Counted from the first letter of the stretch, positions 736-13,298 are shown. The stretch is DNA of 64,000 nucleotides from Bacillota bacterium (GCA_021791495.1 JAJYWN010000016.1:38970-102969); one strand, 5' to 3'. Numbers and translations are program-made. The notes: generated by a model from the letters alone, not told the origin.

Positions 736-2943
736 TTAGAGGGCGTAGTCCGACGCGAAGCGCGCGATGTGCCGGTCGTACCAATCGGTGACGAGGTCCA
801 GGCGTTCCACCCGGTGCCGCGGCTGTCCACCCCTGGACATCCCGTGGCTCTCGTCGGGGAAGCGGACGAAGACCACCTCGCGCCGCAGCCACTTCAGGGC
901 GGTGTAGAGCATCTCGCCCTGGGAGATGGGGCACCGGTAGTCGTTCTCCTGGTGCAGGATGAGGAGCGGCGTGCGCATGTTTTCCACATAGGTGATGGGG
1001 GAGAACTCCATGTAGCGTTGCAGGTCCTCCCAGGGTTTGGTTTGTGACTCCCAGAGGCCGTTCCTAACGCCCACGTCGCTGCTGCCCCACTGGAAGTAGC
1101 GGTCGCAGGTACTGCGCATGGTGATAGCGGCCTTGAAGCGCTCGGTGTGGCCGATGACCCAGTTGGTCATGTAGCCGCCGAAGCTCCCGCCGGCTACGGC
1201 CAGGCGATCGGGGTCGGCCACGCCCAGGGCGATGGCGTGATCGACGCCCGCCATGATGTCATCGTAATCCTTCCCACCATCCATGCGGCCGGCGGCTACA
1301 AAGGTTTGGCCGTAGCCCGAGCTGCTGCGGGGATTGGTGTAGACGACGGCGAACCCGGCCGTGGCGAGGAGTTGGAATTCAAGGAAAAAGGCGTGCCCGT
1401 AGGCGGAATGGGGACCACCGTGAATCTCCAGCATGGTAGGGTAACGGCGGCCGGCGATGTAACCGGCGGGTTTCAAGAGCCAGCCTTCGATGTCCCACCC
1501 GTCGGTACTCTTGTAGTTGATGGTCTCGACTTCGCCCAATTGGACCTGGTCTAGCAGGTCCTGGTTAACCTTGGTCAGGCGGACCTCGCCGTCCCGAATC
1601 AGGGCGTAGATGTCGCCCGGGATGTGGACCGTTGAAGAAGCCAGAGCCACCGTTCCACTATCCTTGGCCACGGAGAAGGAATAGACCGACCGCCCGCCGG
1701 CGGTGAGAGGGGTCACTTTCCCCGACGCCAGGTCAAGGCGCGACAGGTGGTCGCTACCTCCATCGTGGACGAGGAAAAGGAGGGTGGAACCGCCGGCGCT
1801 CCACACGGGGGTAACCGAAGCCCCTCCCATGCGGCAGTCGGAGCCGACACCGGGGGTGCAGTCACGGTCCAGGTCCGGTGTGAGGCAGACCGGTGGCAAG
1901 ACGGCCGGGCTTTCGCCCGCGCCACTGCCGGCGGCGCCCGTCAGCTCGGGGACATCCACCGCCCACAAGGAAGTCACGGTGGCGGCGCGGTATTTGCCGT
2001 CATGGCCAAGGTAGGCGATGCGGCAGCCGTCGGGGGACCAGGAGGGGTTGGAGCACGGGCCAAGGCTGGCCGTCAGTTTGACCGGTAGAGCCTTGGAGCC
2101 GTCCGCGTTCCGCCCCACCGGGAGGATATAGACGTCATTGAAGGAGACATAATCACGGTCGGGCGATGGGTTGGCCACGTAGGCGATGTACCGGCCGTCC
2201 GGAGACCAGGCCGCTCCGGCGCAGTCATAGTCGCCCGAAGTGACGGGCCAGGGCTCTCCTCCGTCCACCGGCACGACCCAGATGTGGTTCCACCTGCCGT
2301 CCCAGAAGCCCTCGCCGTCCATCTTATAGCGGAGGCGGGTGATGATCTTCACGTCACTCTCTTCGGCCTGCCCGCCTGCGGTGGCCCCGGCGCCGCCGTT
2401 GGTCCCGTTGGCGCCGGACACTGCCGCACCGGATACTGGCGCGCCGGACCCACCGGTCGCGCCGTTGGCGGCCGGCCCCGCCCCGCTCTCTTTCTTTCCA
2501 GAAGGATAGCGCCCTCCGGTGGCGCCGCTGTCTGCCACCTTATGGCTGAAAGCGATGAAGCGACCGTCCGGCGACCAAACGGGGTTGCCGGCTCCTCCCT
2601 TAATCTTCGTCAGCTGGCGGGCCTCACCGCCGTTGGCCGGCAGGAGCCAGATCTGTCGGTCACCGCCCCGGTCGGAAACAAAGGCAATGGTCTGTCCGTC
2701 GGGGGACCAGCGGGGGGAACTGTCCGACTTGGGGCCGCCCGAGAAAGGTTGGGGGGCCATTCCGCCGACCCCGGGCCCGGGCTCCGTCCCCACCATCCAA
2801 ATGGAGGAGCGATACTTCTTCTTATCATTTGGGTCGCAGATGGTTTGAACGTACGCGACCCTACCCCCGTCCGGGGAGATCTGCGGGTCACTCACCCATT
2901 TGAAGGAATAGAGGTCGGCCGATTTCAAGGGGCGCTTGTCCAT
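736..2943 (-). CDS. S9 family serine peptidase (acylaminoacyl-peptidase/YuxL-like) with beta-propeller
   Basis: WSPDG propeller repeats, IHGGPH, nucleophile GGSFGG, ENDYRC, DESHG. Start placed at ATG 2943 (MDKRPL) with GGAGGGTG RBS upstream. Confidence 0.92.
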   Translation of the reverse strand: MDKRPLKSADLYSFKWVSDPQISPDGGRVAYVQTICDPNDKKKYRSSIWMVGTEPGPGVGGMAPQPFSGGPKSDSSPRWSPDGQTIAFVSDRGGDRQIWLLPANGGEARQLTKIKGGAGNPVWSPDGRFIAFSHKVADSGATGGRYPSGKKESGAGPAANGATGGSGAPVSGAAVSGANGTNGGAGATAGGQAEESDVKIITRLRYKMDGEGFWDGRWNHIWVVPVDGGEPWPVTSGDYDCAGAAWSPDGRYIAYVANPSPDRDYVSFNDVYILPVGRNADGSKALPVKLTASLGPCSNPSWSPDGCRIAYLGHDGKYRAATVTSLWAVDVPELTGAAGSGAGESPAVLPPVCLTPDLDRDCTPGVGSDCRMGGASVTPVWSAGGSTLLFLVHDGGSDHLSRLDLASGKVTPLTAGGRSVYSFSVAKDSGTVALASSTVHIPGDIYALIRDGEVRLTKVNQDLLDQVQLGEVETINYKSTDGWDIEGWLLKPAGYIAGRRYPTMLEIHGGPHSAYGHAFFLEFQLLATAGFAVVYTNPRSSSGYGQTFVAAGRMDGGKDYDDIMAGVDHAIALGVADPDRLAVAGGSFGGYMTNWVIGHTERFKAAITMRSTCDRYFQWGSSDVGVRNGLWESQTKPWEDLQRYMEFSPITYVENMRTPLLILHQENDYRCPISQGEMLYTALKWLRREVVFVRFPDESHGMSRGGQPRHRVERLDLVTDWYDRHIARFASDYAL

Positions 2944-3357
2944 AGCTTGGTTCACCCTCCGAAAGGTTCGAGTGTAGGAGGTATTCGGGAGAAGCCATCT
3001 CTGTCCTTCAGGCCATCTTCGTCTGAACGGCGTCTGCGGCGGCCGGGACGGTGCGTGTGTAGTCCGCATTGGGGGGGTGGGGGGTATCCGCCGCCGCGGG
3101 GTCGTGGGAGTCAATTCGGGACACTTTTCCGAGACCAACATGGTATCTTGGGTTAACCCCCGGCCATTGTGCTGGCTTTCACAAGGAGGCGGCCGGCATC
3201 TCGGGGTGAGGATCACACTGTCTTGCTTGCATTTCCGCCTGCTAGAGAGCATGGGTCCACATCCGGGTTCCCGGGCGGCACGACAGTCCGGGGGTGGTTC
3301 GGACGGGGCACGAGGGGGGTCCGGACCTTGGCGGTGGAGGTCCGAGATGCCTCTCCA

Positions 3358-3618: not shown

Positions 3619-4245
3619 TCAGGCTGGAACGTATTTCTGGAACAGCTTCTCCGCCCGCTCCACGTTATAGATCCCGCAGACGCACGGCTGGGCGACCAGG
3701 ATGGCGGCCTGGCGCGGGGTGCGTTTGCCGGCTTTCACCTGGCCGATGAGGCGCTCCACCAAGTGACGTGAGACCATCCCGTGACCACACATGGTCAAGA
3801 ACTCCAAAGCCTCCTCGGACGGCAGGTCCCCGGTCTTCCCCCAGATGTTCAGGGATAGGTTTACGGAATGTGGCCTGATCTCTAGCTCGCGGGCCATATC
3901 TTCCACCTCGTCGATGAGCCCGGAGATAGTGATGGAGAGGCCCATGTCCAGCTCTTTCACACGCCGCACGAATTCGCGGACCTTGGCCTTGTCGGCGAAG
4001 GAGCAGCGCACGCGCGGGACGCCGGACAGCTTCTCCTTGATCTGCTCGAAAGTGGCACCCGAGTAGATGGTCCCGCATTCATAGGACCCGATGTTCGTGG
4101 GGCCCAGTTCGTAGATGATGTCCAGCATCTTCAGGAGCTTCTCTTTCGAACCTTCCTGGTTGAACCCCACGGCCGGAGTGGCTAAGATTACATAATCATT
4201 TTGGAGCGATTCGGCGCTCCCGCGCCGGTGTAGAGAGTGCGTCAT
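3619..4245 (-). CDS. Uncharacterised Cys/His-motif protein (paralog 1), partner of the 4Fe-4S protein
   Basis: Starts MTHSLHR at ATG 4245. Motifs TMCGHGMV and CVCGIYN are shared with 5965-6714. Confidence 0.85.
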   Translation of the reverse strand: MTHSLHRRGSAESLQNDYVILATPAVGFNQEGSKEKLLKMLDIIYELGPTNIGSYECGTIYSGATFEQIKEKLSGVPRVRCSFADKAKVREFVRRVKELDMGLSITISGLIDEVEDMARELEIRPHSVNLSLNIWGKTGDLPSEEALEFLTMCGHGMVSRHLVERLIGQVKAGKRTPRQAAILVAQPCVCGIYNVERAEKLFQKYVPA

Positions 4246-4249
4246 TGCC

Positions 4250-4978
4250 TTACACCTCCGATAGGGGGCGGCCCAGGCCCAGATTGATCTTGGCATTCGG
4301 CCGGACCGTGAAGCCCAGCTTTTCGACATCTTCCCGCACCGGGATGCGGCCATCGGGGTCATACCGGGTGATGAGGTCGAGCGAGAAGACGGTGTCCAAC
4401 TCCTTGGCCACGCGCCGGACCTCGGTCAAGATAGCCTCCAGCCGCTCGGCCGGGGCGGTGAATTCGATGATGCAGGAGATCATCCGGAGTCCCAGGCGCC
4501 TCGCCGGAAAAGTCCCGTTCGCCGGGTCATCCATGATGTGGGACAGCGGGCTCATGTGCTCCCAAACGATGCCGATACGGGCCAGGGCCGTGGTGACCTT
4601 CTGGACCTCGGCCAGAGTGGTCCCCAGGCAGGGACGGCCCATTTCCAAGGCCACGCCGATCTCCCCACGTTTGACGCGGCCGGTGACGTCGTTGGTCTTG
4701 ACCTCCTCCGTGCCCCGTCCGGGTATCTTCGTCACCTTGTGGGTGGTCATCGGGTCGGAGAAGTATTTGGAAATACCCCTTTCCGTCTCGAAGAGGTTGG
4801 GATCGTCGTAGATGGCCCCCGTGGGGCACTTCACGATGTAGCGGCGGCCGCAGGTCCCGCACTCGGCGCAGATATCCAGATCGATGCTGGCTTTCTTCCC
4901 AGACACACTGATGGCTCCCACGGGGCAGTAGGGAACGCAGATGCCGCAGCCGTTGCACTTTTCTTGGTCGATCAGCAC
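4250..4978 (-). CDS. 2x[4Fe-4S] ferredoxin-domain protein with uncharacterised C-terminal domain (paralog 1)
   Basis: CNGCGICVPYCP and CAECGTC...CP; PGRGTEEVKTNDVTGRVKRGE; GTG start with AAAGGAG RBS. Confidence 0.9.
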   Translation of the reverse strand: MLIDQEKCNGCGICVPYCPVGAISVSGKKASIDLDICAECGTCGRRYIVKCPTGAIYDDPNLFETERGISKYFSDPMTTHKVTKIPGRGTEEVKTNDVTGRVKRGEIGVALEMGRPCLGTTLAEVQKVTTALARIGIVWEHMSPLSHIMDDPANGTFPARRLGLRMISCIIEFTAPAERLEAILTEVRRVAKELDTVFSLDLITRYDPDGRIPVREDVEKLGFTVRPNAKINLGLGRPLSEV

Positions 4979-5026
4979 GAGTCGTAGTCTCCTTTCTATG
5001 GGGTGGGCAGGGAGAGGCGTGGGGCC

Positions 5027-5962
5027 CTATGGATTCTTTCGGACCTCTGCCAGGGCCGCAAGAATCTCAGCGCGTCCGCCGGCCCCTTGGCCTCCGAAGC
5101 GGTGGTCCAGACCAAGGGCGGCGATACCCGCCAACTTGTCCCGTTCGGCGCGGGCCATGGTGGCGTCGGCGCCGATCTCGGTCAGGAAATCCACCACGTC
5201 GGCCATCTCCTCCGACCGGCGGGCCGCGTGCAGCGCAGCGCCCGCCAGGCGGTAATCCACGAGTCGAGCGAAGGGCCTTCCGGGCTCATCCAGGGTGGAC
5301 ATGACTTGGTCCAGCACACCGTAGGCCGAGGCCGCCGTGGCCAGTTCCCAGATGAGAGAGTCCAGACCTTTCTGGTAGATGCTACGGAACATCTTGATGG
5401 CCGACGCCTCACCGGGGATCTGGCCGACGACTTTCACATTCAGGCCCAGGGCGGGAGCGGCTTCCGCCAAGGCGGCCGAACCCGGTCCGGACAGCAGCAT
5501 GGGCACGTGTACTCCGTCGACGGCGAAACGGCCGACCACCGCCGCGTCGACGAAACGCCCGCCCCGCGCCGCTACTTTCTCGCCGAGGGCGCGTTTCTTC
5601 GGAGGGCTCATGGTATTCACGTCAACGAAGGTCTTTCCGGCCAACCCCATTCCGGCCGCCTCGATGACCGCCGAAGCACCGGCGGCCGTGACTGCCGAGA
5701 AAACGAGGTCCACCCCAGACTGCGTCACCGCCTCGAAGGCGGAGTGACACAGCTTCACTCCGGTCTCTTGGGCTCTCTGAAGGATCAGCGCCGCGCGGGA
5801 ACCGGCCGCGGGACCGGTCCCGCCGGAAACGGGAGCGTCACGGTCGAAGGCAACTACCATGGGGGGCTGGGGAAGGGCCCGCCACCCCTTGGCCAGCTCA
5901 TAGCCGGCCTCGCCCAGCCCCAGAAGGGCGATGACGCCGGACGCGGAGGTTGGAGCCGCCAT
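5027..5962 (-). CDS. NAD(P)-dependent oxidoreductase, 6-phosphogluconate/3-hydroxyisobutyrate dehydrogenase-like (DUF1932 type)
   Basis: Rossmann GLGEAG; FVDVNTMSP; FVDAAVVG; ASAIKMFRSIYQKG; HAARRSEEM. Confidence 0.85.
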   Translation of the reverse strand: MAAPTSASGVIALLGLGEAGYELAKGWRALPQPPMVVAFDRDAPVSGGTGPAAGSRAALILQRAQETGVKLCHSAFEAVTQSGVDLVFSAVTAAGASAVIEAAGMGLAGKTFVDVNTMSPPKKRALGEKVAARGGRFVDAAVVGRFAVDGVHVPMLLSGPGSAALAEAAPALGLNVKVVGQIPGEASAIKMFRSIYQKGLDSLIWELATAASAYGVLDQVMSTLDEPGRPFARLVDYRLAGAALHAARRSEEMADVVDFLTEIGADATMARAERDKLAGIAALGLDHRFGGQGAGGRAEILAALAEVRKNP

Positions 5963-5964
5963 GG

Positions 5965-6714
5965 CTACTCCTCCTCGCCGGCTCCGGCACCACTGCCGCT
6001 ATCGCCACCTCCATCCTCAAAGCCGGCACAGCTTTCACATCCGGTCGGCGGTGTCGCCGTCGCCCCGCCGTCACGGGCGGCTCGAGCCGCGGCCTTGGCG
6101 GCGGTGGCCATCTCACCCACGAGCTTGCCGGCGCGGACGTGGTTGAAAATGCCGCAGGGGCACAATGCGGCCAGTTTCTTCCCGGCCTCCTCCGCCGAGA
6201 TTCTCCCGGCACGCACCTCTCGGGCCATCTTTTCCACGATCCCGGGCGCCACCATGTGGTGCCCGCACATCGTGGTTACGGCCAGAGTCTCCTGCTTCGG
6301 CAGGAGCTCCTTCTTGCCCCAGACTCCCAGGGAGAAGTTGATGGTGTGCGGGGTGAGCCCGGCGGCCTTGCACGCCGGAAGGACGTAGTCCAAGGGTCCG
6401 CTGATGACCACGGACAGACCAGTGTCGGCGGTCTTGACCTGCTTCAGAAACTCCGTCACATGTTCGGGGGCGTTCAGAACCCCGCGCAGACGGGACTGGT
6501 TGGAGATGCGGGACTTTACATAATCAACCGGGTATAGCAGAATTGACCCGGACTTGACGTCTCCCCAGTTCGAGCAACCCACGGCCTCGGCGGCGGCCAG
6601 GAAGGCGCGGGCCTTCTCGGCGATGCCGGTGTCGTTGATACCTTTCGCCTGGTACATAAGCCAGACGTAGTCTTCGTTCTGGTATTCACCTTGGCGGTGA
6701 AGGGTGTGTGTCAT
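5965..6714 (-). CDS. Uncharacterised Cys/His-motif protein (paralog 2) with low-complexity CxxC tail
   Basis: Starts MTHTLHR at ATG 6714; TMCGHHMV; CPCGIFN; tail contains GCESCAG. Confidence 0.85.
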   Translation of the reverse strand: MTHTLHRQGEYQNEDYVWLMYQAKGINDTGIAEKARAFLAAAEAVGCSNWGDVKSGSILLYPVDYVKSRISNQSRLRGVLNAPEHVTEFLKQVKTADTGLSVVISGPLDYVLPACKAAGLTPHTINFSLGVWGKKELLPKQETLAVTTMCGHHMVAPGIVEKMAREVRAGRISAEEAGKKLAALCPCGIFNHVRAGKLVGEMATAAKAAARAARDGGATATPPTGCESCAGFEDGGGDSGSGAGAGEEE

Positions 6715-6805
6715 GGTGGCCGTCTTCCTCCTTGTCTTCTTCCGTGTCGGCCAGATGCCGTCAGGTGCGTCTGGTTCGTCAGATGGGCCAGATGGGCCAG
6801 GTGCG

Positions 6806-7534
6806 CTAGTCCGTAACCAGGGGCCGGCCCAGGCCGACGTTGACTTTCCCTCTGGTGGGCACGGGCAGCCCGTACTTGGGCAGCTCGGCGATGGCCGCGC
6901 TGCGGCCTTCTTCGTCCACCCGCAGCACCAGTCCAAGGGAGAAGACGGTATCGATCTCTTTTTCCACGCGCTGGAGGGCCTGGATGACCCCGCCCATATT
7001 GGACGTGGGAGTCTTACCTTCGATGATGATGGAGAGGAAGTACTTGTCCCCGATGCCGGGCAGGAACTCACCGGTCTCCAAGTTGGTCATGAGCTTGCCG
7101 ATGGGGCTGACGTGGCCGGGCTCCAGTTTCAGCCCGGCGGCGCACACGGCCCGGGCCACTTTTTCGACGTCCCGGAGATAGCAGCCTACGCCAGGGCGCC
7201 CCATGTCGATGGCGAACCCGACCTCACCCTTCTTCACTCGCCCCGTCACATCGTTGGTTTTCGACTCCTCCGTACCCCGGCCCGGAACCCCTGTTTCAGC
7301 CGTGGTCACCGTGGGGTCGGAAATGACGTGGCAAAACTCGTCGATGAAGGCCTCCAGCGAACTGGGGGTCATGGCGTCTTGTGGGCAGGCCTTGTTGCGC
7401 ACACAAACGTAGCAGTCGGTGCAGCGATGTGGGTCCACCCCGGCCTTCCGGTTCTTGACCTTGATGGCTCCCACGGAGCAATAGGCCAGGCAGTCGCCGC
7501 AGCCGGTACACTTCTCCTGATCAATGAGAATCAA
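6806..7534 (-). CDS. 2x[4Fe-4S] ferredoxin-domain protein (paralog 2)
   Basis: CTGCGDCLAYCS and CTDCYVC...CP; PGRGTEESKTNDVTGRVKKGE; TTG start at 7534 after GGAGGTG RBS. Confidence 0.9.
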   Translation of the reverse strand: MILIDQEKCTGCGDCLAYCSVGAIKVKNRKAGVDPHRCTDCYVCVRNKACPQDAMTPSSLEAFIDEFCHVISDPTVTTAETGVPGRGTEESKTNDVTGRVKKGEVGFAIDMGRPGVGCYLRDVEKVARAVCAAGLKLEPGHVSPIGKLMTNLETGEFLPGIGDKYFLSIIIEGKTPTSNMGGVIQALQRVEKEIDTVFSLGLVLRVDEEGRSAAIAELPKYGLPVPTRGKVNVGLGRPLVTD

Positions 7535-7593
7535 GCGGTCGCACCTCCGTTTCAATCCACATTCCCGCGCGGGGAATGACGAGAGACAAGCGG

Positions 7594-9105
7594 TTACTGG
7601 GTGACGCCCGCGGTCTTACGGATCCGGGCCACGATCCCACGGGCCAGGGGAATCAGGAGCATGACGATGGCCACCACTATCAGAACCCTCGAAATGGGGC
7701 GCGTGAAGAAGATGGCCAGGCTGCCGTGGGAGATCATCAGCGACTGGCGCAGAGTCATTTCCAGCTGACTGCCAAGCACCAGAGCCAGGACCAGCGGCGC
7801 CTGAGGGTACCCGAGCTTGCGCATGACGAAGCCGAGAATGCCGAAAACCAGCATGATCCAGACGTCGTTGAGGTTGTTATTGAGGCTGTATACTCCGACC
7901 ACACAGAACACCACGATCAAGCTGGACAAGATCCATTGGGGGATGCGAAGAATCTGGACGAAGGTGGGGATAAACGCGATATTCAAGATGACCAGCAAGA
8001 CGTTGCCGATGTACATGCTGGCAATCAAACCCCAGACGAACTGGGGATTCTTTTCGAAAAGCAGCGGCCCCGGGCGCAGGCCCAGCATCATCAGGGCTCC
8101 CATCATCACCGCGGTGGTGGCCGATCCGGGCACGCCCAAGGTCAACAGGGGCACCATGGCGCCCACCGAGGCGGCGTTATTAGCCGATTCAGGTGCCGCG
8201 ACGCCGACGATTTCGCCCTTACCGAAGGTCTCCGGGTGCTTGGAGAGTTTCTTCTCCGAGGCGTAAGACAAGAACGACGCAATGGTGGCTCCAGCCCCGG
8301 GTAGGACGCCGACCACGAATCCCAAGAAGGTCGACCGCAAGATGGCCCAACGGGTAGCGACCCAGTCCTTGGCCTTCGGGAAGACGTTCTTCAAGGCCAG
8401 ATCGGCTTTCTGAATCTCCAGGGGCTGGATTTTCTCGACGCTGGCCAGGACCTCAGTGATGCCGAACAGCCCCATGGCGATGGGCAGGAAATCGAAACCG
8501 CCCAGCAACTGCCGTGTGCCCAAGGTGAAGCGGGCCGACCCACTCACGATGTCGATGCCCACGATGGAGAGAAAGAGTCCGGCCAGGGTGGCGATGATGG
8601 TCTTCGAAGGGGACCCCTCGGTCAGGCCGGCCAGAGCCGTGAACCCCAAGAGCATCAGCGCCACGTACTCCGGGGGGCCGAAAGACAGGGCCCAACTGGC
8701 CAGGGTGGGCGCCAGGAACATGAAAATAACCTGGCTGATGGTGCCGGCGATGAAGGACCCGAGAGCGGCGATCCCCAAGGCCACACCGGCCCGGCCTTTA
8801 CGTGCCATCTGATACCCGTCGATGGTGGTCATGACCGATGAGGCTTCACCTGGGACGTTGATGAGGACCGAGGTGATGGTGCCGCCGTACATGGCTCCGT
8901 AGTAAATGCCGGCCAGCATGATGATGGCGGTGACCGGGTTCCGGCCGAAGGTCAGGGGTAGGAGAATGGCTACCCCGGCCGACGGGCCGATTCCGGGCAG
9001 GGCACCGATGATGGTGCCGAAAACGACTCCGATGAAACAGAACAGCAGGTTCACCGGGCTCAAGGCGACCCCGAAACCCATCGCCAGGTTACTCAGGACA
9101 TCCAT
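7594..9105 (-). CDS. tctA: Tripartite tricarboxylate transporter large permease
   Basis: GALPGIG, YYGAMYGGTITSVLINVPGE, AAPESANNA, GVPGSATTA. Confidence 0.95.
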   Translation of the reverse strand: MDVLSNLAMGFGVALSPVNLLFCFIGVVFGTIIGALPGIGPSAGVAILLPLTFGRNPVTAIIMLAGIYYGAMYGGTITSVLINVPGEASSVMTTIDGYQMARKGRAGVALGIAALGSFIAGTISQVIFMFLAPTLASWALSFGPPEYVALMLLGFTALAGLTEGSPSKTIIATLAGLFLSIVGIDIVSGSARFTLGTRQLLGGFDFLPIAMGLFGITEVLASVEKIQPLEIQKADLALKNVFPKAKDWVATRWAILRSTFLGFVVGVLPGAGATIASFLSYASEKKLSKHPETFGKGEIVGVAAPESANNAASVGAMVPLLTLGVPGSATTAVMMGALMMLGLRPGPLLFEKNPQFVWGLIASMYIGNVLLVILNIAFIPTFVQILRIPQWILSSLIVVFCVVGVYSLNNNLNDVWIMLVFGILGFVMRKLGYPQAPLVLALVLGSQLEMTLRQSLMISHGSLAIFFTRPISRVLIVVAIVMLLIPLARGIVARIRKTAGVTQ

Positions 9106-9132
9106 TGGTCTTCACTCCTTGAGGGTGAACTG

Positions 9133-9606
9133 CTAGAGTCCCAATTTCTCGAAAAGGAGTCCCACCGGGAACCGGACCTCCAATAGACGGGCGAAAACGA
9201 GGTAGAAGGCCAGTGGGACCCCGATCCCCCAGCGGATGGCCGACCGCCAAGAGGCCTTGGCCTCGTAGCGTAGCATGAACGCCATGAATAGGGCCAGGCC
9301 GATCAGCATCCCGAAATACCCGGTAATAAGCACCATGGCTACGGACCCGGCCGTCACCCGCAGGACACGCCCGAGTCCCTCACGGCCTTCGATGAACGGC
9401 AGACCCGGCCCGCCGGAATTCCGGTCTATCAGGAGACCGCCGAAGACAATGACCCCGCAGACGATCAGGAACAAGCCCACCCAAAACGAAGCGAAGCCTG
9501 GGCCGGGCACGCCTTCAAGGTAATAGGACAGGCCCAGCGAGGCAACGGTGATGTATGTGCCCACCGCCGTGATGGCAGAAGCCATGATGATGTTGGCCGT
9601 CCTCAA
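9133..9606 (-). CDS. tctB: Tripartite tricarboxylate transporter small permease
   Basis: 157 aa, about 4 TM, GVPGPGF motif, C-terminal LLEVRFPVG; lies between tctC and tctA. Confidence 0.88.
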   Translation of the reverse strand: MRTANIIMASAITAVGTYITVASLGLSYYLEGVPGPGFASFWVGLFLIVCGVIVFGGLLIDRNSGGPGLPFIEGREGLGRVLRVTAGSVAMVLITGYFGMLIGLALFMAFMLRYEAKASWRSAIRWGIGVPLAFYLVFARLLEVRFPVGLLFEKLGL

Positions 9607-9692
9607 GCGATGCTCACTTCCTTCCGAAAACGCGCGGCTCCAGGTGAACCAAGCTGCCCGGGGCGCTGTAAGACGCTGGATTGAGAGGCGAG

Positions 9693-9725
9693 AGGAGAGG
9701 CTGCCGGAGCATGGCAGCCTCTCCT
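9693..9725. other. 13-bp perfect hairpin between tctC and tctB
   Basis: AGGAGAGGCTGCC-ggagcat-GGCAGCCTCTCCT; no U-tract on the minus strand. Confidence 0.6.
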
Positions 9726-9741
9726 TCTCTAGACGGACTCG

Positions 9742-10737
9742 TTACTTGATCTGCCCCAGGGCCTTGAACACTGTGGTGTACAGGTCGTTCATCTGTTTGA
9801 CGGCGGTGGCGAAGGTCTTCGAATCCATGAAAGCCGGGGTGATCAGGTTCTTCTCAACATAGTCCTTGGTCCACTTGGAGCTCTGAGACATCTTCTGGAA
9901 AGCGGTTTCAAGGATCTTCACGTCCTCAGGCGGGAAGTCCTTGGGACCGAGCACGCCACGGAGTTGCTTGAAGATGACTGTCCCATAACCCAGTTCCTTG
10001 AAGGTCGGGGTGTCCTTCAGCGCGCCGCCCAGGCGGACGTCGGTGGCGACGGCCAACGGGATCATCTTTTTGGCTTCGATCTGAGCCATGGCCTCGCCGG
10101 GGTTGGCGATGGTCATGTCGGTGTGGCCGCCCATGACGTCGGTGACGGCCTCAGCGCCGCTGTTGAACGGGATGTAGTTGAAGGTGACACCGGCCTCCTT
10201 TTCAAGGAGATAGGTCACCACACGGTCATCGGAGGTGGCGCCGGTCCCGGCCACGCTGAGGGTCTTGGGCGGAGCCTTCTTGGCCGCGTCGATGATGTCT
10301 TTCAGGGACTTGTACTTCGACTTGTCGTTCACGAGGAGGACGTAAGTGTCATAAGCAAGCCCGACGATGGGGGTGAAGGAGTCGGTCTTGACGTCGGACT
10401 TTCCCAGGAGCGGGGTGGTCCACCAGCTGGAGCTGACGGTGCCGAGGGTGTAAGGAACGTCGGCCTTCTGCTTGTCGCGGATGTAGGCGTAGCCCACGGC
10501 GCCGGAGCCACCGGCCTTATTCATGACAGTCAGGGGCTGCTTGAGAAGTTTCTCAGCGTCAAAGACCGAAGCGATGGCACGGGCCAACAGGTCGCTGCCG
10601 CCGCCCGGGTTGAACGGGACCACAAACTCGATCGCCTTGCTCGGGTAGGGTTTGGAGCCGCAACCGGCCAGGAAAGTGGTAGCCAAGAGTGCGGCGACCA
10701 TGGCCAGCGCCAGGAAACGGACTCTTGCGGACTTCAC
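9742..10737 (-). CDS. tctC: Tripartite tricarboxylate transporter substrate-binding lipoprotein (Bug family)
   Basis: Lipobox LAGC; YPSKAIEFVVPFNPGGGSD; NKAGGSG; YIPFNSGAEA. Confidence 0.93.
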   Translation of the reverse strand: MKSARVRFLALAMVAALLATTFLAGCGSKPYPSKAIEFVVPFNPGGGSDLLARAIASVFDAEKLLKQPLTVMNKAGGSGAVGYAYIRDKQKADVPYTLGTVSSSWWTTPLLGKSDVKTDSFTPIVGLAYDTYVLLVNDKSKYKSLKDIIDAAKKAPPKTLSVAGTGATSDDRVVTYLLEKEAGVTFNYIPFNSGAEAVTDVMGGHTDMTIANPGEAMAQIEAKKMIPLAVATDVRLGGALKDTPTFKELGYGTVIFKQLRGVLGPKDFPPEDVKILETAFQKMSQSSKWTKDYVEKNLITPAFMDSKTFATAVKQMNDLYTTVFKALGQIK

Positions 10738-11150
10738 TAAACGGACCTCCTTCCACTTCTAGGGAACCTCAATCTCCGTCACGACAACTCAGTCACGACA
10801 ACGCCAAAGTCCTGGGAGCAACAGGAAAATAAGGAATGTCCTCTCGCTGGTTTTCCTAGAATCACCTCTTTTCCTTTGGTCACTAGAGGAATTAGAGGCA
10901 AAAAGCAGGCCTTTTGGCTATCTTTTGTTATCATACCACATTTTGCATCATTATCACTAGAGAAGAGCCACTTGGGACTAATGTCACAGTACCCCTCCCA
11001 CTAGGCCGTCCGTGGCAAAGAAGACCAGTTAAAGGTGGCAAGCCGGCGCCGGACTAGATTCAGGCAGGATGCGGGGCCGGAGAGGTGGAAGCAATCCACC
11101 GTCATGTCGACCGCATAACGGTAGCTGGAAATAGGAGAGGGGGACGGCAG

Positions 11151-13298
11151 GTGGGCCCATACAGCATCCTTCTGCTCGGCGCGCCGGCGATGCAGGGGCC
11201 GGACGGCCCCGTCCCCATCCCGAACATTAAGGCCCAAGCCCTGCTCTGGTACTTGGCGGAGCAAGGCGACCGGCCGTTCTTCCGCGCCCACCTGGCATCG
11301 CTCCTATGGGACTCCGACAGCGAGACCGATCGGCGGAACAGCCTGAACTCAACTCTTTCCAGGATGCGCAAAGCCCTTCCACTATGGCCTTTTCTCTCCG
11401 ACCGCGACCGGTTGGCGTGGGACCGGGGGAAAGGGGTAGCGGTGGACACGGAGCAGCTGGCCGCACTGCTCAGGACGGTGCGCCGGGAGGCGCGGGCTTT
11501 TGGAGCCGGTCCGTCGCGCGCCGATCGCGACCGCCTGGCGGCCGCCGTTGCCCTCTGGCGGGGGCCCTTTCTGGCGGGCTTTGAAGTTCCCGGCGACACT
11601 CTTTACGACGAGTGGTTGGACCAGAAACGTAACCTGTATGAGACTCTGACGCTGGATACATTGTCACAGTTGATCCAAATGGATGAAATGGCCGCGGCGT
11701 GGCCCGAGATGGCCTCCCGGGCCAGGCAGGCCATGGCCATCGACCCCCTTCAGGAGACCTTTCACCGCTCATTGATGACCGCTCTCTATCAGCTGGGCGA
11801 CCGCGCCGCGGCCTTGGCTCAGTATTCGGAATGCCGGCGCCTTCTGGCGGAAGAACTCGGGACGGAACCTGACCCGGCCACCAGCGCCCTCCGTGACATC
11901 ATTGCCAAAGGCCGCTTGCTGCGCCCATCGGGAGTGTCTCTTGGGGGCCTGACAGAAATGGTTGGTACTTCCAGCCCAGGCGTTCGCGACTCCGGGCTCG
12001 CGGCTCCCGGCACGGTGGTAGAGGGCCTGCCGGCGGCGACCGCGCCGGCCGGCCCCGTGCCGGCCGGTGATAGACCCAAGCTGCCCTCAAGCCAGACTGT
12101 CGGCCCAGCTGCCGGCCCAGTCGCGGTCCGGGTGGGTGCGGTCGCCACCGCCTTTGCCAAGCGGACCCTATTGGTCGGGCGGGAGAGGGAACTCGAATCC
12201 TTGTCCGGCGCCATGACCGCCACGGAGCGGAATCGGCAGACCGTCATCTTCCTGTGCGGTGAGGAGGGCGCCGGCAAGACTCGGCTGGTGGAGGAGATCG
12301 AAGCTCGCTGGCGGAGAGAAAGACCACCGGGATCCTGGTTCACCGCTCGCTGCGCCGAGGAGTTGCGGAATCTGCCGCTGGCGCCCCTGGTGGCGGCGTT
12401 GGACCTGGCGGTCAAGGGACTCGTGACTAACCGGGCAGGTCTTAGTTCAGACACCGTTGCCACCTTGGCCCGGTTGTTCCCTGAGAGCATAGGCCCGGTG
12501 GCCGGTTTCCCGTTGCTTCCCGAACCGGGCGCCGATGAATCACGCCGGCGTTCCTTTCAGGCGCTGGCGGATTTCCTGGAGGCTTTGCCGCATCCCACGG
12601 TGTTGGTGATCGAGGACAGCCAGTGGGCAGACGCCGATACTTGGTCTTTCATCGCGTTCCTGGCACGGCGCGCCACGAACAGTCCGCCGGTTGTCCTGGT
12701 CACGGCCCGGTCGAGCGACCTTCCCGAAGGAGGAAGGGCCCTGCTTGAACGGATGCAGCACGAGGGAGAGTTGACGCGCCTGGAACTTGGCCCTTTGTCC
12801 GGAGCGGCCGTGCAGGCGTTGGCGGTGGCCGCCGGGATGCCGCTCTCCCCAGCCGCGACGAAGACCCTGTCCTCCTTCACCGGCGGAAACCCGTGGTTCA
12901 CCGTGGAGACCCTGCGAGCCGCGGCGGACACCGGGTGGCCTCAGACAGTAGTGGGTGAGGGTCGGGTCGACAGTGGCAGCCCGGTCTGGCCAGTGCCCGC
13001 CGCGATCCGAGCAAGCGTGTCCACCCGGTTGGCGCGACTGTCCCCGGCGGCCCGCGAGGTGGCTTTGGTCGCTTCCGTCAGTCCGGAGGGCCTGCCTTTT
13101 GAGGATATCCTGCAGGCCACGGCGCTTTCGGAGTTCGATGCGCTAGAGGGTCTGGAAGTCCTGGTCCAGTCGGGTACCCTGGAAGAGCGCACGACAGGGG
13201 AGATTGCTTTCCGGTGCGATCTGATCCGACAGGCCGTGCTGGCGTCCATGAGCAGGGCGCGTCGGGAAAGCCTCGGGCGAAAGACGGCTTCCAAGTAA
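11151..13298 (+). CDS. SARP/AfsR-type regulator: wHTH + BTAD + AAA ATPase
   Basis: KAQALLWYLA, AAVALWRGPFL, DPLQETFHRSLMTALYQLGDRAAALAQY, Walker A GEEGAGKT, Walker B LVIEDSQWAD. GTG 11151 follows AGGAGAGGGG; the ORF track starts at 11085. Confidence 0.88.
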   Translation: MGPYSILLLGAPAMQGPDGPVPIPNIKAQALLWYLAEQGDRPFFRAHLASLLWDSDSETDRRNSLNSTLSRMRKALPLWPFLSDRDRLAWDRGKGVAVDTEQLAALLRTVRREARAFGAGPSRADRDRLAAAVALWRGPFLAGFEVPGDTLYDEWLDQKRNLYETLTLDTLSQLIQMDEMAAAWPEMASRARQAMAIDPLQETFHRSLMTALYQLGDRAAALAQYSECRRLLAEELGTEPDPATSALRDIIAKGRLLRPSGVSLGGLTEMVGTSSPGVRDSGLAAPGTVVEGLPAATAPAGPVPAGDRPKLPSSQTVGPAAGPVAVRVGAVATAFAKRTLLVGRERELESLSGAMTATERNRQTVIFLCGEEGAGKTRLVEEIEARWRRERPPGSWFTARCAEELRNLPLAPLVAALDLAVKGLVTNRAGLSSDTVATLARLFPESIGPVAGFPLLPEPGADESRRRSFQALADFLEALPHPTVLVIEDSQWADADTWSFIAFLARRATNSPPVVLVTARSSDLPEGGRALLERMQHEGELTRLELGPLSGAAVQALAVAAGMPLSPAATKTLSSFTGGNPWFTVETLRAAADTGWPQTVVGEGRVDSGSPVWPVPAAIRASVSTRLARLSPAAREVALVASVSPEGLPFEDILQATALSEFDALEGLEVLVQSGTLEERTTGEIAFRCDLIRQAVLASMSRARRESLGRKTASK

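Follow-up and report, generated by a model that had tools for sequence, protein, structure and literature searches.

A number of flavin-free iron-sulfur systems, among them LutA/LutB, HdrB/HdrC, GlcF and TcuB, combine a ferredoxin-like part with a cysteine-rich catalytic module and act on small acids or disulfides. Their layout, in which a two-cluster ferredoxin module stands next to a Cys-rich partner in hydroxy-acid catabolic operons, resembles, without any sequence match, that of a duplicated two-gene module at positions 3619-7534 of a 64,000-nucleotide (nt) stretch of Bacillota bacterium DNA (GCA_021791495.1, JAJYWN010000016.1:38970-102969), hereafter the window. The module consists of the gene pairs A1-B1 and A2-B2, which flank a gene for an NAD(P)-dependent dehydrogenase and lie downstream of the genes of a tripartite tricarboxylate transporter (TTT). 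The A proteins are similar to the clostridial-type 2x[4Fe-4S] ferredoxins (Fer4/Fer4_7; RnfB, HydB, PorD, HgcB) over residues 1-57, which contain two CxxCxxC...CP motifs, whereas the remaining 185 residues of A and the whole of B differ from these proteins and match nothing in the searches made. Judged from their sequences, the two pairs appear to be paralogues that diverged long ago and that encode an undescribed iron-sulfur protein of two subunits. The reading that we favour, and to which we would give an even chance, is that A and B are the subunits of a heteromeric Fe-S redox enzyme that acts on an imported carboxylate, in which a Cys3-His centre of B is wired by A at the subunit interface, and that the two pairs serve two steps or two isomers around the dehydrogenase.

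Protein A: a ferredoxin head on an unfamiliar domain

A1 (7534-6806, minus strand) belongs to a minor paralogue type, here called type II, and A2 (4978-4250, minus strand) to the main type. Both consist of a ferredoxin head followed by an alpha/beta domain, and they are 43% identical over 242 residues (E-value 5e-62). The original prediction had described the two genes as equal in length, which they are (729 nt each, the stop codon included); an alternative TTG start of A1 is possible at 7555, and the homologues start at the position of 7534. Each protein has both cluster motifs in full, that is, eight cysteines, and the further motifs that had been listed as shared by the two (SDP, PGRGTEExKTNDVTGRVKxGE, MGRP, DTVFSL and KxNxGLGRP) are present in A1 as well as in A2.

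For comparison, 82 related loci were examined together with the window, 77 once duplicates were removed, and conservation was counted across all clades, and across six or more phyla, in 105 A and 103 B sequences. A2 has 2,754 homologues. All eight ferredoxin cysteines of A are present in 105 of 105 sequences, and the conserved residues outside the cluster motifs include GRGTEExKTND, two GRP motifs, Pro144, Ser168, Glu172 and KxNxGxG. Pfam and NCBIfam recognize only the Fer4-type head in A1 and A2 (Pfam E-values down to 1e-10), which makes up about a quarter of the protein. The AlphaFold2 model of A2 has a predicted local distance difference test score (pLDDT) of 84.4, and a Foldseek search of the PDB with this model likewise matched the head only, with a probability of 1.00 to 3eun, 1fca and 1fdn, in alignments of 57-77 columns with a root-mean-square deviation of about 1.7-3 Å. 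For the C-terminal domain no match beyond ferredoxins was obtained in PDB sequence and profile searches or in Pfam scans of the isolated regions to an E-value of 10.

By the order of its predicted secondary structure elements, the C-terminal domain of A is probably a beta-alpha-beta-beta-alpha-beta sandwich of the ACT/PII kind. Both this domain and the N-terminal domain of B weakly resemble PII, SbtB and ACT domains in Foldseek, at E-values above 0.03, which are not significant. The invariant loops of A, residues 80-100 and 230-242, are the low-confidence parts of the otherwise confident monomer model.

Several names that A homologues carry in the databases were considered and set aside. The NCBI name "DUF362 domain-containing protein" is found on the Gelria and Desulfitobacterium homologues; it appears to be an over-annotation, as DUF362 is matched neither by the full proteins to an E-value of 0.1 (Pfam, NCBIfam) nor by 17 isolated C-terminal domains to an E-value of 10 (Pfam). 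Other homologues are labelled as sulfite reductase DsrA/B or as PreA, and in these Pfam finds only Fer4-type domains, with no NIR_SIR or siroheme domain and no DHO_dh TIM barrel. All three labels derive from the ferredoxin head. A profile match of the C-terminal domain to the putative glycerate kinase TM1585 (2b8n) covers 56 residues at E-values of 0.005-0.013 and was too weak to be used.

Protein B and its predicted metal site

B1 (6714-5965, minus strand) is the Cys/His partner of type II and B2 (4245-3619, minus strand) that of the main type; the two are 38% identical over 208 residues (E-value 1e-43), and this similarity, like that of the A proteins, goes far beyond what chance would give. 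Neither matches a Pfam or NCBIfam family to an E-value of 0.1. Among 730 close homologues of B2, most of which are unnamed or called "hypothetical protein", none has a functional name and none a Pfam domain, and the family comprises 823 representatives at 50% clustering. The AlphaFold2 model of B2 is a confident one (pLDDT 90.6, predicted template modelling score 0.87) and has no neighbour in the PDB, the best Foldseek hit having an E-value of 0.07 and the TM-scores lying below 0.32. Profile searches of the PDB with the whole of B and with its C-terminal region also gave no match, nor did Pfam scans of the C-terminal segments to an E-value of 10. B1 is longer by a tail of about 45 residues that is rich in Ala, Gly and acidic residues (…ATAAKAAARAARDGGATATPPTGCESCAGFEDGGGDSGSGAGAGEEE) and holds a CxxC motif, CESC (window positions 5965-6100); type II B proteins elsewhere are about 215-218 residues long and seem to be without a tail of this kind. 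A match of B1 (P0002) to the TALE protein Hax3 at an E-value of 3e-4 is a low-complexity or repeat artefact.

The motifs originally read from the two B sequences (MTHxLHR, LSxxISG, PHxxNxSLxxWGK, TMCGHxMV and CxCGIxN) are present in both, and so are the three invariant cysteines and several histidines that had been noted there, which in B2 numbering are Cys153, Cys188 and Cys190 and His3, His6, His126 and His155. In the larger comparison Cys153, His155, Cys188, Arg7 and Asn194 are found in 103 of 103 sequences, Cys190 in 102, and His126 and His6 in 101 each. The N-terminal domain of B, like the C-terminal domain of A, is predicted from its secondary structure order to be a beta-alpha-beta-beta-alpha-beta sandwich of the ACT/PII kind, and it is followed by four short helices at the end of the protein. 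In this last region a helix at 144-150 leads into the CGH loop, helices 160-171 and 177-185 follow, and the CxC loop then precedes the helix at 195-203. Since the CGH and CxC loops both follow "up" helices (144-150 and 177-185), they should come to lie at the same end of an up-down arrangement. From this order, the two loops most likely form one metal site, with Cys153, Cys188, Cys190 and His155 as ligands, for a third Fe-S cluster beside the two of A, which could be of the [4Fe-4S] or the [2Fe-2S] type; Cys3-His ligation has precedents for both cluster types.

Two described iron-sulfur folds were considered for B and rejected. A BFD-like [2Fe-2S] domain (PF04324), suggested by a likeness of motifs, was not found in 17 C-terminal segments of B (Fer2_BFD, Pfam to an E-value of 10) or among PDB profile matches. 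The CCG domain (PF02754) of HdrB, LutA, GlcF and GlpC gave no Pfam or NCBIfam match either, the C-terminal region alone included, and B has CGH and CxC motifs without a CC pair.

As a separate observation, residues 226-238 of A (RPNAKVNLGLGRP) echo the linker of B at residues 124-137 (KPHSVNLSLxxWGK, B2 numbering), and each of the two stretches follows a beta-alpha-beta unit. The echo hints that the C-terminal domain of A and the N-terminal domain of B could be distant duplicates of one another; an hhalign comparison of the A C-terminal domain with B gave a probability of only 2%, which leaves the motif echo alone.

Pairing of A and B and their distribution

The two genes are bound to each other well beyond the window, as the idea of a two-gene module would have it: A and B co-occur almost without exception, and throughout the compared loci the order is A and then B. 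The 93 adjacent pairs have a median spacer of 5 nt from the stop of A to the start of B, and 89 of them a spacer of 25 nt or less, which would be typical of translational coupling. The 91-nt spacer between A1 and B1 in the window (6715-6805) is an outlier in this set. The pairwise distances among A proteins correlate with those among B proteins at r = 0.877; exchanging the partners inside a locus lowers this value to 0.232, and random shuffles give 0.128 or less. Because the correlation is high and is lost on swapping, the pair appears to have been duplicated and inherited as a unit, without exchange of partners.

The carriers of the pair belong mainly to the Bacillota, and also to the Thermodesulfobacteriota, the Chloroflexota, a Bathyarchaeon (Bathyarchaeia) and others, and come from gut, rumen, digester, subsurface and mine drainage habitats. 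Cultured ones include Desulfitobacterium hafniense, Sporolituus thermophilus, Gelria sp. Kuro-4 and Desulfosarcina widdelii. A further A-B clade is found in Acidobacteriota and Nitrospirales, and in a clade of the Acidobacteriota type the A proteins are longer (283-306 residues). In one Acidobacteriota locus (L083 10001-14089) A and B overlap by 4 nt and are followed by genes for an amidohydrolase and a cupin, no carboxylate transporter is present, and B starts with VTNTLHR. Another A protein of the Acidobacteriota type (P0395) is fused to a UbiE-like S-adenosylmethionine-dependent methyltransferase, and A may have partners other than B.

The low-confidence loops of A were described above; the N-terminus of B is likewise the low-confidence stretch of the otherwise confident B2 monomer model. 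This is what would be expected of elements that become ordered only at an A-B interface. Fusions of A to B and of B to A are also found and were considered as proof of a complex; they can be taken as suggestive only, since read-through and frameshifts are possible.

Gene neighbourhoods and redox wiring

A transporter of the TTT, TRAP or CitMHS type is encoded in 51 of the 77 loci, and a dehydrogenase from one of the hydroxy-acid dehydrogenase families (Ldh_2, NAD_binding_2/11, DUF1932, PdxA or 2-Hacid_dh) in 39. Other recurrent neighbours are regulators of the GntR/FCD, LysR and PrpR types and proteins of the DHDPS type, IlvD/Edd, PdxA, AP_endonuc_2, glycerate kinase, RraA-like aldolase/decarboxylase and M20 peptidase families. 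Some loci with a single pair contain an aldehyde:ferredoxin oxidoreductase (AFOR) with Fer4_11 and MoaD-like partners, and others a four-subunit 2-oxoacid:ferredoxin oxidoreductase (OFOR) with a CoA transferase and CitMHS. From these neighbourhoods we infer that the substrates are hydroxy- or oxo-carboxylates, and no narrower class can be named. The neighbours that come near to NCBIfam models of sulfolactate and ureidoglycolate dehydrogenases (Ldh_2), tartronate semialdehyde reductase (beta-hydroxyacid dehydrogenases) and DapA (DHDPS) all score below the curated cut-offs, and reading a particular substrate from them was given up, the structure matches of TctC being without useful ligand information as well.

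In several independent architectures of other lineages the pair is joined to electron-input modules. In one of them (P0421, L084 380-3139) a GltD-like module of Pyr_redox_2 and Fer4_20 is fused seamlessly into the first cluster motif of A, with B 4 nt downstream, an arrangement that resembles a complete A-B system with its own link to NAD(P)H. In another (P0321), B and a Fer4_11 dicluster domain form one protein. In five Thermodesulfobacteriota loci (L066, L071, L073, L078 and L079) genes for a Fer4_11 protein, a 510-residue Prismane-like protein and a Pyr_redox_2 flavoprotein lie directly upstream of A-B. These architectures, together with the absolute conservation of the eight cysteines of A, make it more probable that B receives or gives up electrons through A than that the ferredoxin head has a structural role alone.

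The 510-residue protein of the Thermodesulfobacteriota loci has a weak N-terminal match to the Prismane/CODH family, and the Fer4_11, Prismane-like and Pyr_redox_2 proteins together make up an uncharacterised redox cassette of their own.

Proposed mechanism and alternatives

If A-B is a redox enzyme for imported carboxylates, its mechanism might be pictured as follows. A and B would form a complex with the active site at their interface, and electrons would be relayed by the two [4Fe-4S] clusters of A between the B site and the ferredoxin pool of the cell; in other lineages a fused or adjoining NAD(P)H-FAD-FeS module would replace the ferredoxin pool. At the B site, where the N-terminal THxLHR motif and the PHS loop likely lie near the CGH/CxC cluster, a hydroxy- or oxo-carboxylate imported by TctABC would be reduced or oxidised. 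A1B1 and A2B2 would each catalyse a step of their own, or each take one of two isomers, with the NAD(P)-dependent dehydrogenase acting between them. A bolder form of the idea, which we regard as rather doubtful, makes A-B a new class of flavin-free enzymes, driven by ferredoxin or, through add-on modules, by NAD(P)H, which carry out redox chemistry on free carboxylates without CoA activation at an unprecedented site of a Cys3-His Fe-S cluster and a further His between two ACT-like domains, and whose paralogues are a standard step in the breakdown of organic acids by anaerobes. The chemistry of such a class could be, for example, reductive dehydroxylation or NAD-independent oxidation of hydroxy acids.

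A number of observations weigh against a redox enzyme of this kind. No flavin, thiamine pyrophosphate, molybdopterin or nucleotide-binding signature was found in A or B, and to our knowledge there are few precedents for flavin-free redox chemistry on free carboxylates. His3 of B is invariant in the 103-sequence set but is replaced by Asn in the Acidobacteriota clade. The correlation of distances between A and B may be due to joint inheritance and not to physical contact. P0390 and P0397, the B-A fusions, could be read-through products in tandems of the form A-B-A-B, and frameshift artefacts are the likely origin of the A-B fusions. One A gene of the Acidobacteriota type (L085 10001-11884) is followed by an O-methyltransferase gene, with no B within 10 kb. 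About a third of the loci (26 of 77) have no transporter of the three types within 10 kb. Finally, the pair remains 55-70% identical across the Bacillota while its neighbours vary, which would also fit a generic, substrate-independent role.

Among the alternatives, the one that survives best, unlikely as we consider it, is a non-redox Fe-S hydro-lyase, in which a three-Cys cluster of B acts as a Lewis acid and, by dehydration, converts an imported carboxylate with two or more hydroxyl groups to a 2-oxo acid. Clusters of aconitase, serine dehydratase and class I fumarase act in this way. The product would be taken over by Ldh_2, by aldolases of the DHDPS type or the RraA-like kind or by a 2-oxoacid:ferredoxin oxidoreductase, and the head of A would merely reduce or repair the catalytic cluster. 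B has exactly three invariant cysteines, as such a cluster would need, and the composition of the loci also agrees: most of those with DHDPS-type, RraA-like or Ldh_2 proteins show no other recognisable dehydratase, IlvD/Edd being present in 8 loci only, and the minimal loci consist of a GntR regulator, A-B, TctCBA and sometimes the RraA-like aldolase/decarboxylase. However, His155 of B is as invariant as the cysteines and may provide a fourth ligand near Cys153, the eight invariant cysteines of A would be a costly feature for an enzyme without redox chemistry, and fusions to or neighbourhoods with NAD(P)H-FAD-FeS modules have arisen independently. There is also no likeness of A or B to the known Fe-S hydro-lyases (serine dehydratase, class I fumarase/TtdAB, aconitase) by Pfam, NCBIfam, PDB profile or Foldseek searches.

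In a further alternative, A-B would be an accessory of binding-protein-dependent secondary transporters, a cytoplasmic Fe-S heterodimer of ACT/PII-like domains that senses redox state or a metabolite and gates or tunes uptake by TTT, TRAP or CitMHS systems while the substrate is left untransformed. Transporter genes are indeed the commonest immediate neighbours, with TctC, TctA or TctB at about half of the pair ends and the pair lying between tctC and tctB in 12 cases; the pair is highly conserved where the surrounding enzymes vary, and both non-ferredoxin domains look like small-molecule-binding alpha/beta sandwiches. This role nevertheless appears improbable. Two or three pairs for a single transporter are common, the type of paralogue follows the neighbouring set of enzymes, the loci lacking a transporter include those of the AFOR and OFOR types as well as the Acidobacteriota pair with its amidohydrolase and cupin, and the likenesses to PII, SbtB and ACT domains are below significance.

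There is equally little probability, in our view, that A-B is a dedicated electron carrier without substrate chemistry of its own, which would serve as a shuttle or adaptor between the redox pool of the cell and oxidoreductases encoded nearby (AFOR, OFOR, dehydrogenases). The pair does adjoin AFOR with Fer4_11 and the four-subunit OFOR operons, it is fused to electron-input modules, and some A proteins are paired with methyltransferases and not with B. Yet most loci, the window included, contain no ferredoxin-dependent enzyme besides A-B, and AFOR and OFOR have ferredoxin subunits of their own. Moreover, about 350 invariant residues outside the clusters, among them charged loops with many Arg, Glu, Asn and Thr residues, exceed the needs of a shuttle.

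Divergence of the two pairs

In a maximum-likelihood tree of the 103 B proteins, B2 falls into the large main clade, whereas B1 belongs to a distinct clade (100/97 support) together with the first-pair copies of loci in which a first pair A'B', Ldh_2, a second pair AB and tctCBA follow one another in this order. The tree of A agrees, the nearest relatives of A1 being the partners of type II B proteins. On the evidence of the two trees, the duplication that gave rise to A1/B1 and A2/B2 is ancient. The type II pair is always found in a locus that also has a main-type pair (12 of 12 loci). Main-type pairs are often alone, and 36 of the 77 loci have a single pair; other types of second pair exist as well, each with a different neighbourhood.

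In six of the type II loci an Ldh_2 dehydrogenase is encoded between the two pairs, in the place that the DUF1932 dehydrogenase takes in the window. This looks like a non-orthologous replacement in which the order of pair, NAD(P) dehydrogenase and pair has been kept. The suggestion that the retention of two diverged copies points to two steps or two substrates agrees well with such ancient paralogue types recurring together elsewhere. A heterotetramer of both copies had been proposed as well, and the loci bear on it in two ways: one pair can stand alone, yet the A1/B1 type is never found without a main-type pair and may depend on it. A single hetero-tetramer of A1B1 and A2B2 in place of two enzymes is given little credence here: that the type II pair is always accompanied by a main one and that both pairs are, by the operon layout, co-transcribed would suit it, but main-type pairs often occur on their own, the pairing of cognate A and B has been kept without signs of cross-pairing, and second pairs are of several types in differing neighbourhoods.

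Operon organisation

The two pairs are part of a run of eight co-directional minus-strand genes at 3619-10737, in the order tctC, tctB, tctA, A1, B1, dehydrogenase, A2 and B2. The paralogous pairs had been placed in one operon from the outset, and their coordinates, strand, common direction and tight spacing were all confirmed. Apart from the long A1-B1 spacer, 2 nt separate B1 from the dehydrogenase gene, 48 nt the latter from A2, and 4 nt A2 from B2. The first gene, tctC (10737-9742, minus strand), encodes the solute-binding lipoprotein of the TTT; its matches among PDB sequences are TTT binding proteins (best E-value 3e-42), and it groups with the TctC cluster found in 47 related loci. It is followed by the small membrane subunit gene tctB (9606-9133, minus strand), which belongs to the TctB cluster of the related loci and on whose orthologues the Pfam domain TctB is assigned, and by the large membrane subunit gene tctA (9105-7594, minus strand), from the TctA cluster present in 49 of 83 loci. 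The dehydrogenase between the pairs (5962-5027, minus strand) is an NAD(P)-dependent protein with NAD_binding_2 and DUF1932 domains (PF03446, E-value 9.7e-5; PF09130, 2.6e-13). Its PDB relatives are uncharacterised structural-genomics proteins and, more weakly, beta-hydroxyacid dehydrogenases and imine reductases; the same DUF1932 family adjoins A-B in 12 other loci.

Upstream of tctC, a promoter-like site at 10957-10930 (minus strand) matches the consensus at 9 of 12 positions and has an extended -10 TG, but it is weak, as the scan yielded no more sites than shuffled sequence did. The same scan found no convincing terminator within the operon. The sequencing runs that hold the window sequence are all of metagenome DNA from mine drainage and sediment, with no RNA run among them.

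Three further reading frames surround or overlap the operon. A 461-residue open frame at 5003-6388 (plus strand), antisense to the dehydrogenase gene and B1, is a GC-rich shadow frame with no relatives in the 82 related loci. Divergent from tctC, a 737-residue regulator-like protein is encoded at 11085-13298 (plus strand), by eye with a SARP/BTAD N-terminus followed by an ATPase-like region. Downstream of B2 lies the gene of an 838-residue protein (736-3252, minus strand), by eye an S9 prolyl-oligopeptidase or acylaminoacyl-peptidase with a beta-propeller, which is probably a separate transcription unit.

Comparison with known systems

The pair is found almost always in operons that serve to take up and degrade organic acids. 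Should it be an enzyme, annotation and metabolic models at present miss a recurrent step in the anaerobic catabolism of carboxylates, and the cofactor site, with three Cys and one His and with further invariant His residues, could stand for a new kind of Fe-S chemistry. The substrate can be approached through the binding proteins encoded next to the pair. No description of the A-B family was found in the literature searched, which included a D. hafniense proteome paper. The statement in the original prediction that no characterised enzyme is known with these motifs agrees with Pfam, NCBIfam, PDB sequence and profile searches and Foldseek comparison with the PDB, which together return the ferredoxin head alone.

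Compared with LutAB, HdrBC, GlcF and TcuB, which share the general layout, B has neither a CCG nor a LUD/DUF162 domain (Pfam to an E-value of 0.1), and its pattern is CGH...CxC and not CX(n)CCX(n)CXXC. DUF362 (PF04015) is, like the C-terminal domain of A, fused to 4Fe-4S ferredoxin domains in anaerobes, but A leaves its profile unmatched. The GltD-type NAD(P)H-FAD-[4Fe-4S] modules, known as the glutamate synthase small subunit, PreT and SudA/NfnB, offer a further comparison, as one lineage fuses such a module to A and has B as the next gene; by analogy, the pair would there be the catalytic partner fed by the module. The window operon differs in having no such module, and its electron donor or acceptor would be free ferredoxin or another protein. 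Among all these systems, it appears from the searches that only the ferredoxin head of A belongs to a known family, and that B and three quarters of A fall outside every described family and solved fold. The feature is a real one, of ancient origin and wide distribution, and the window holds an ordinary member of a large uncharacterised family, so that what is new is the family rather than the locus; what the window itself adds is that the order of type II pair, NAD(P) dehydrogenase and main pair has been kept despite a swap of the dehydrogenase family, DUF1932 for Ldh_2.

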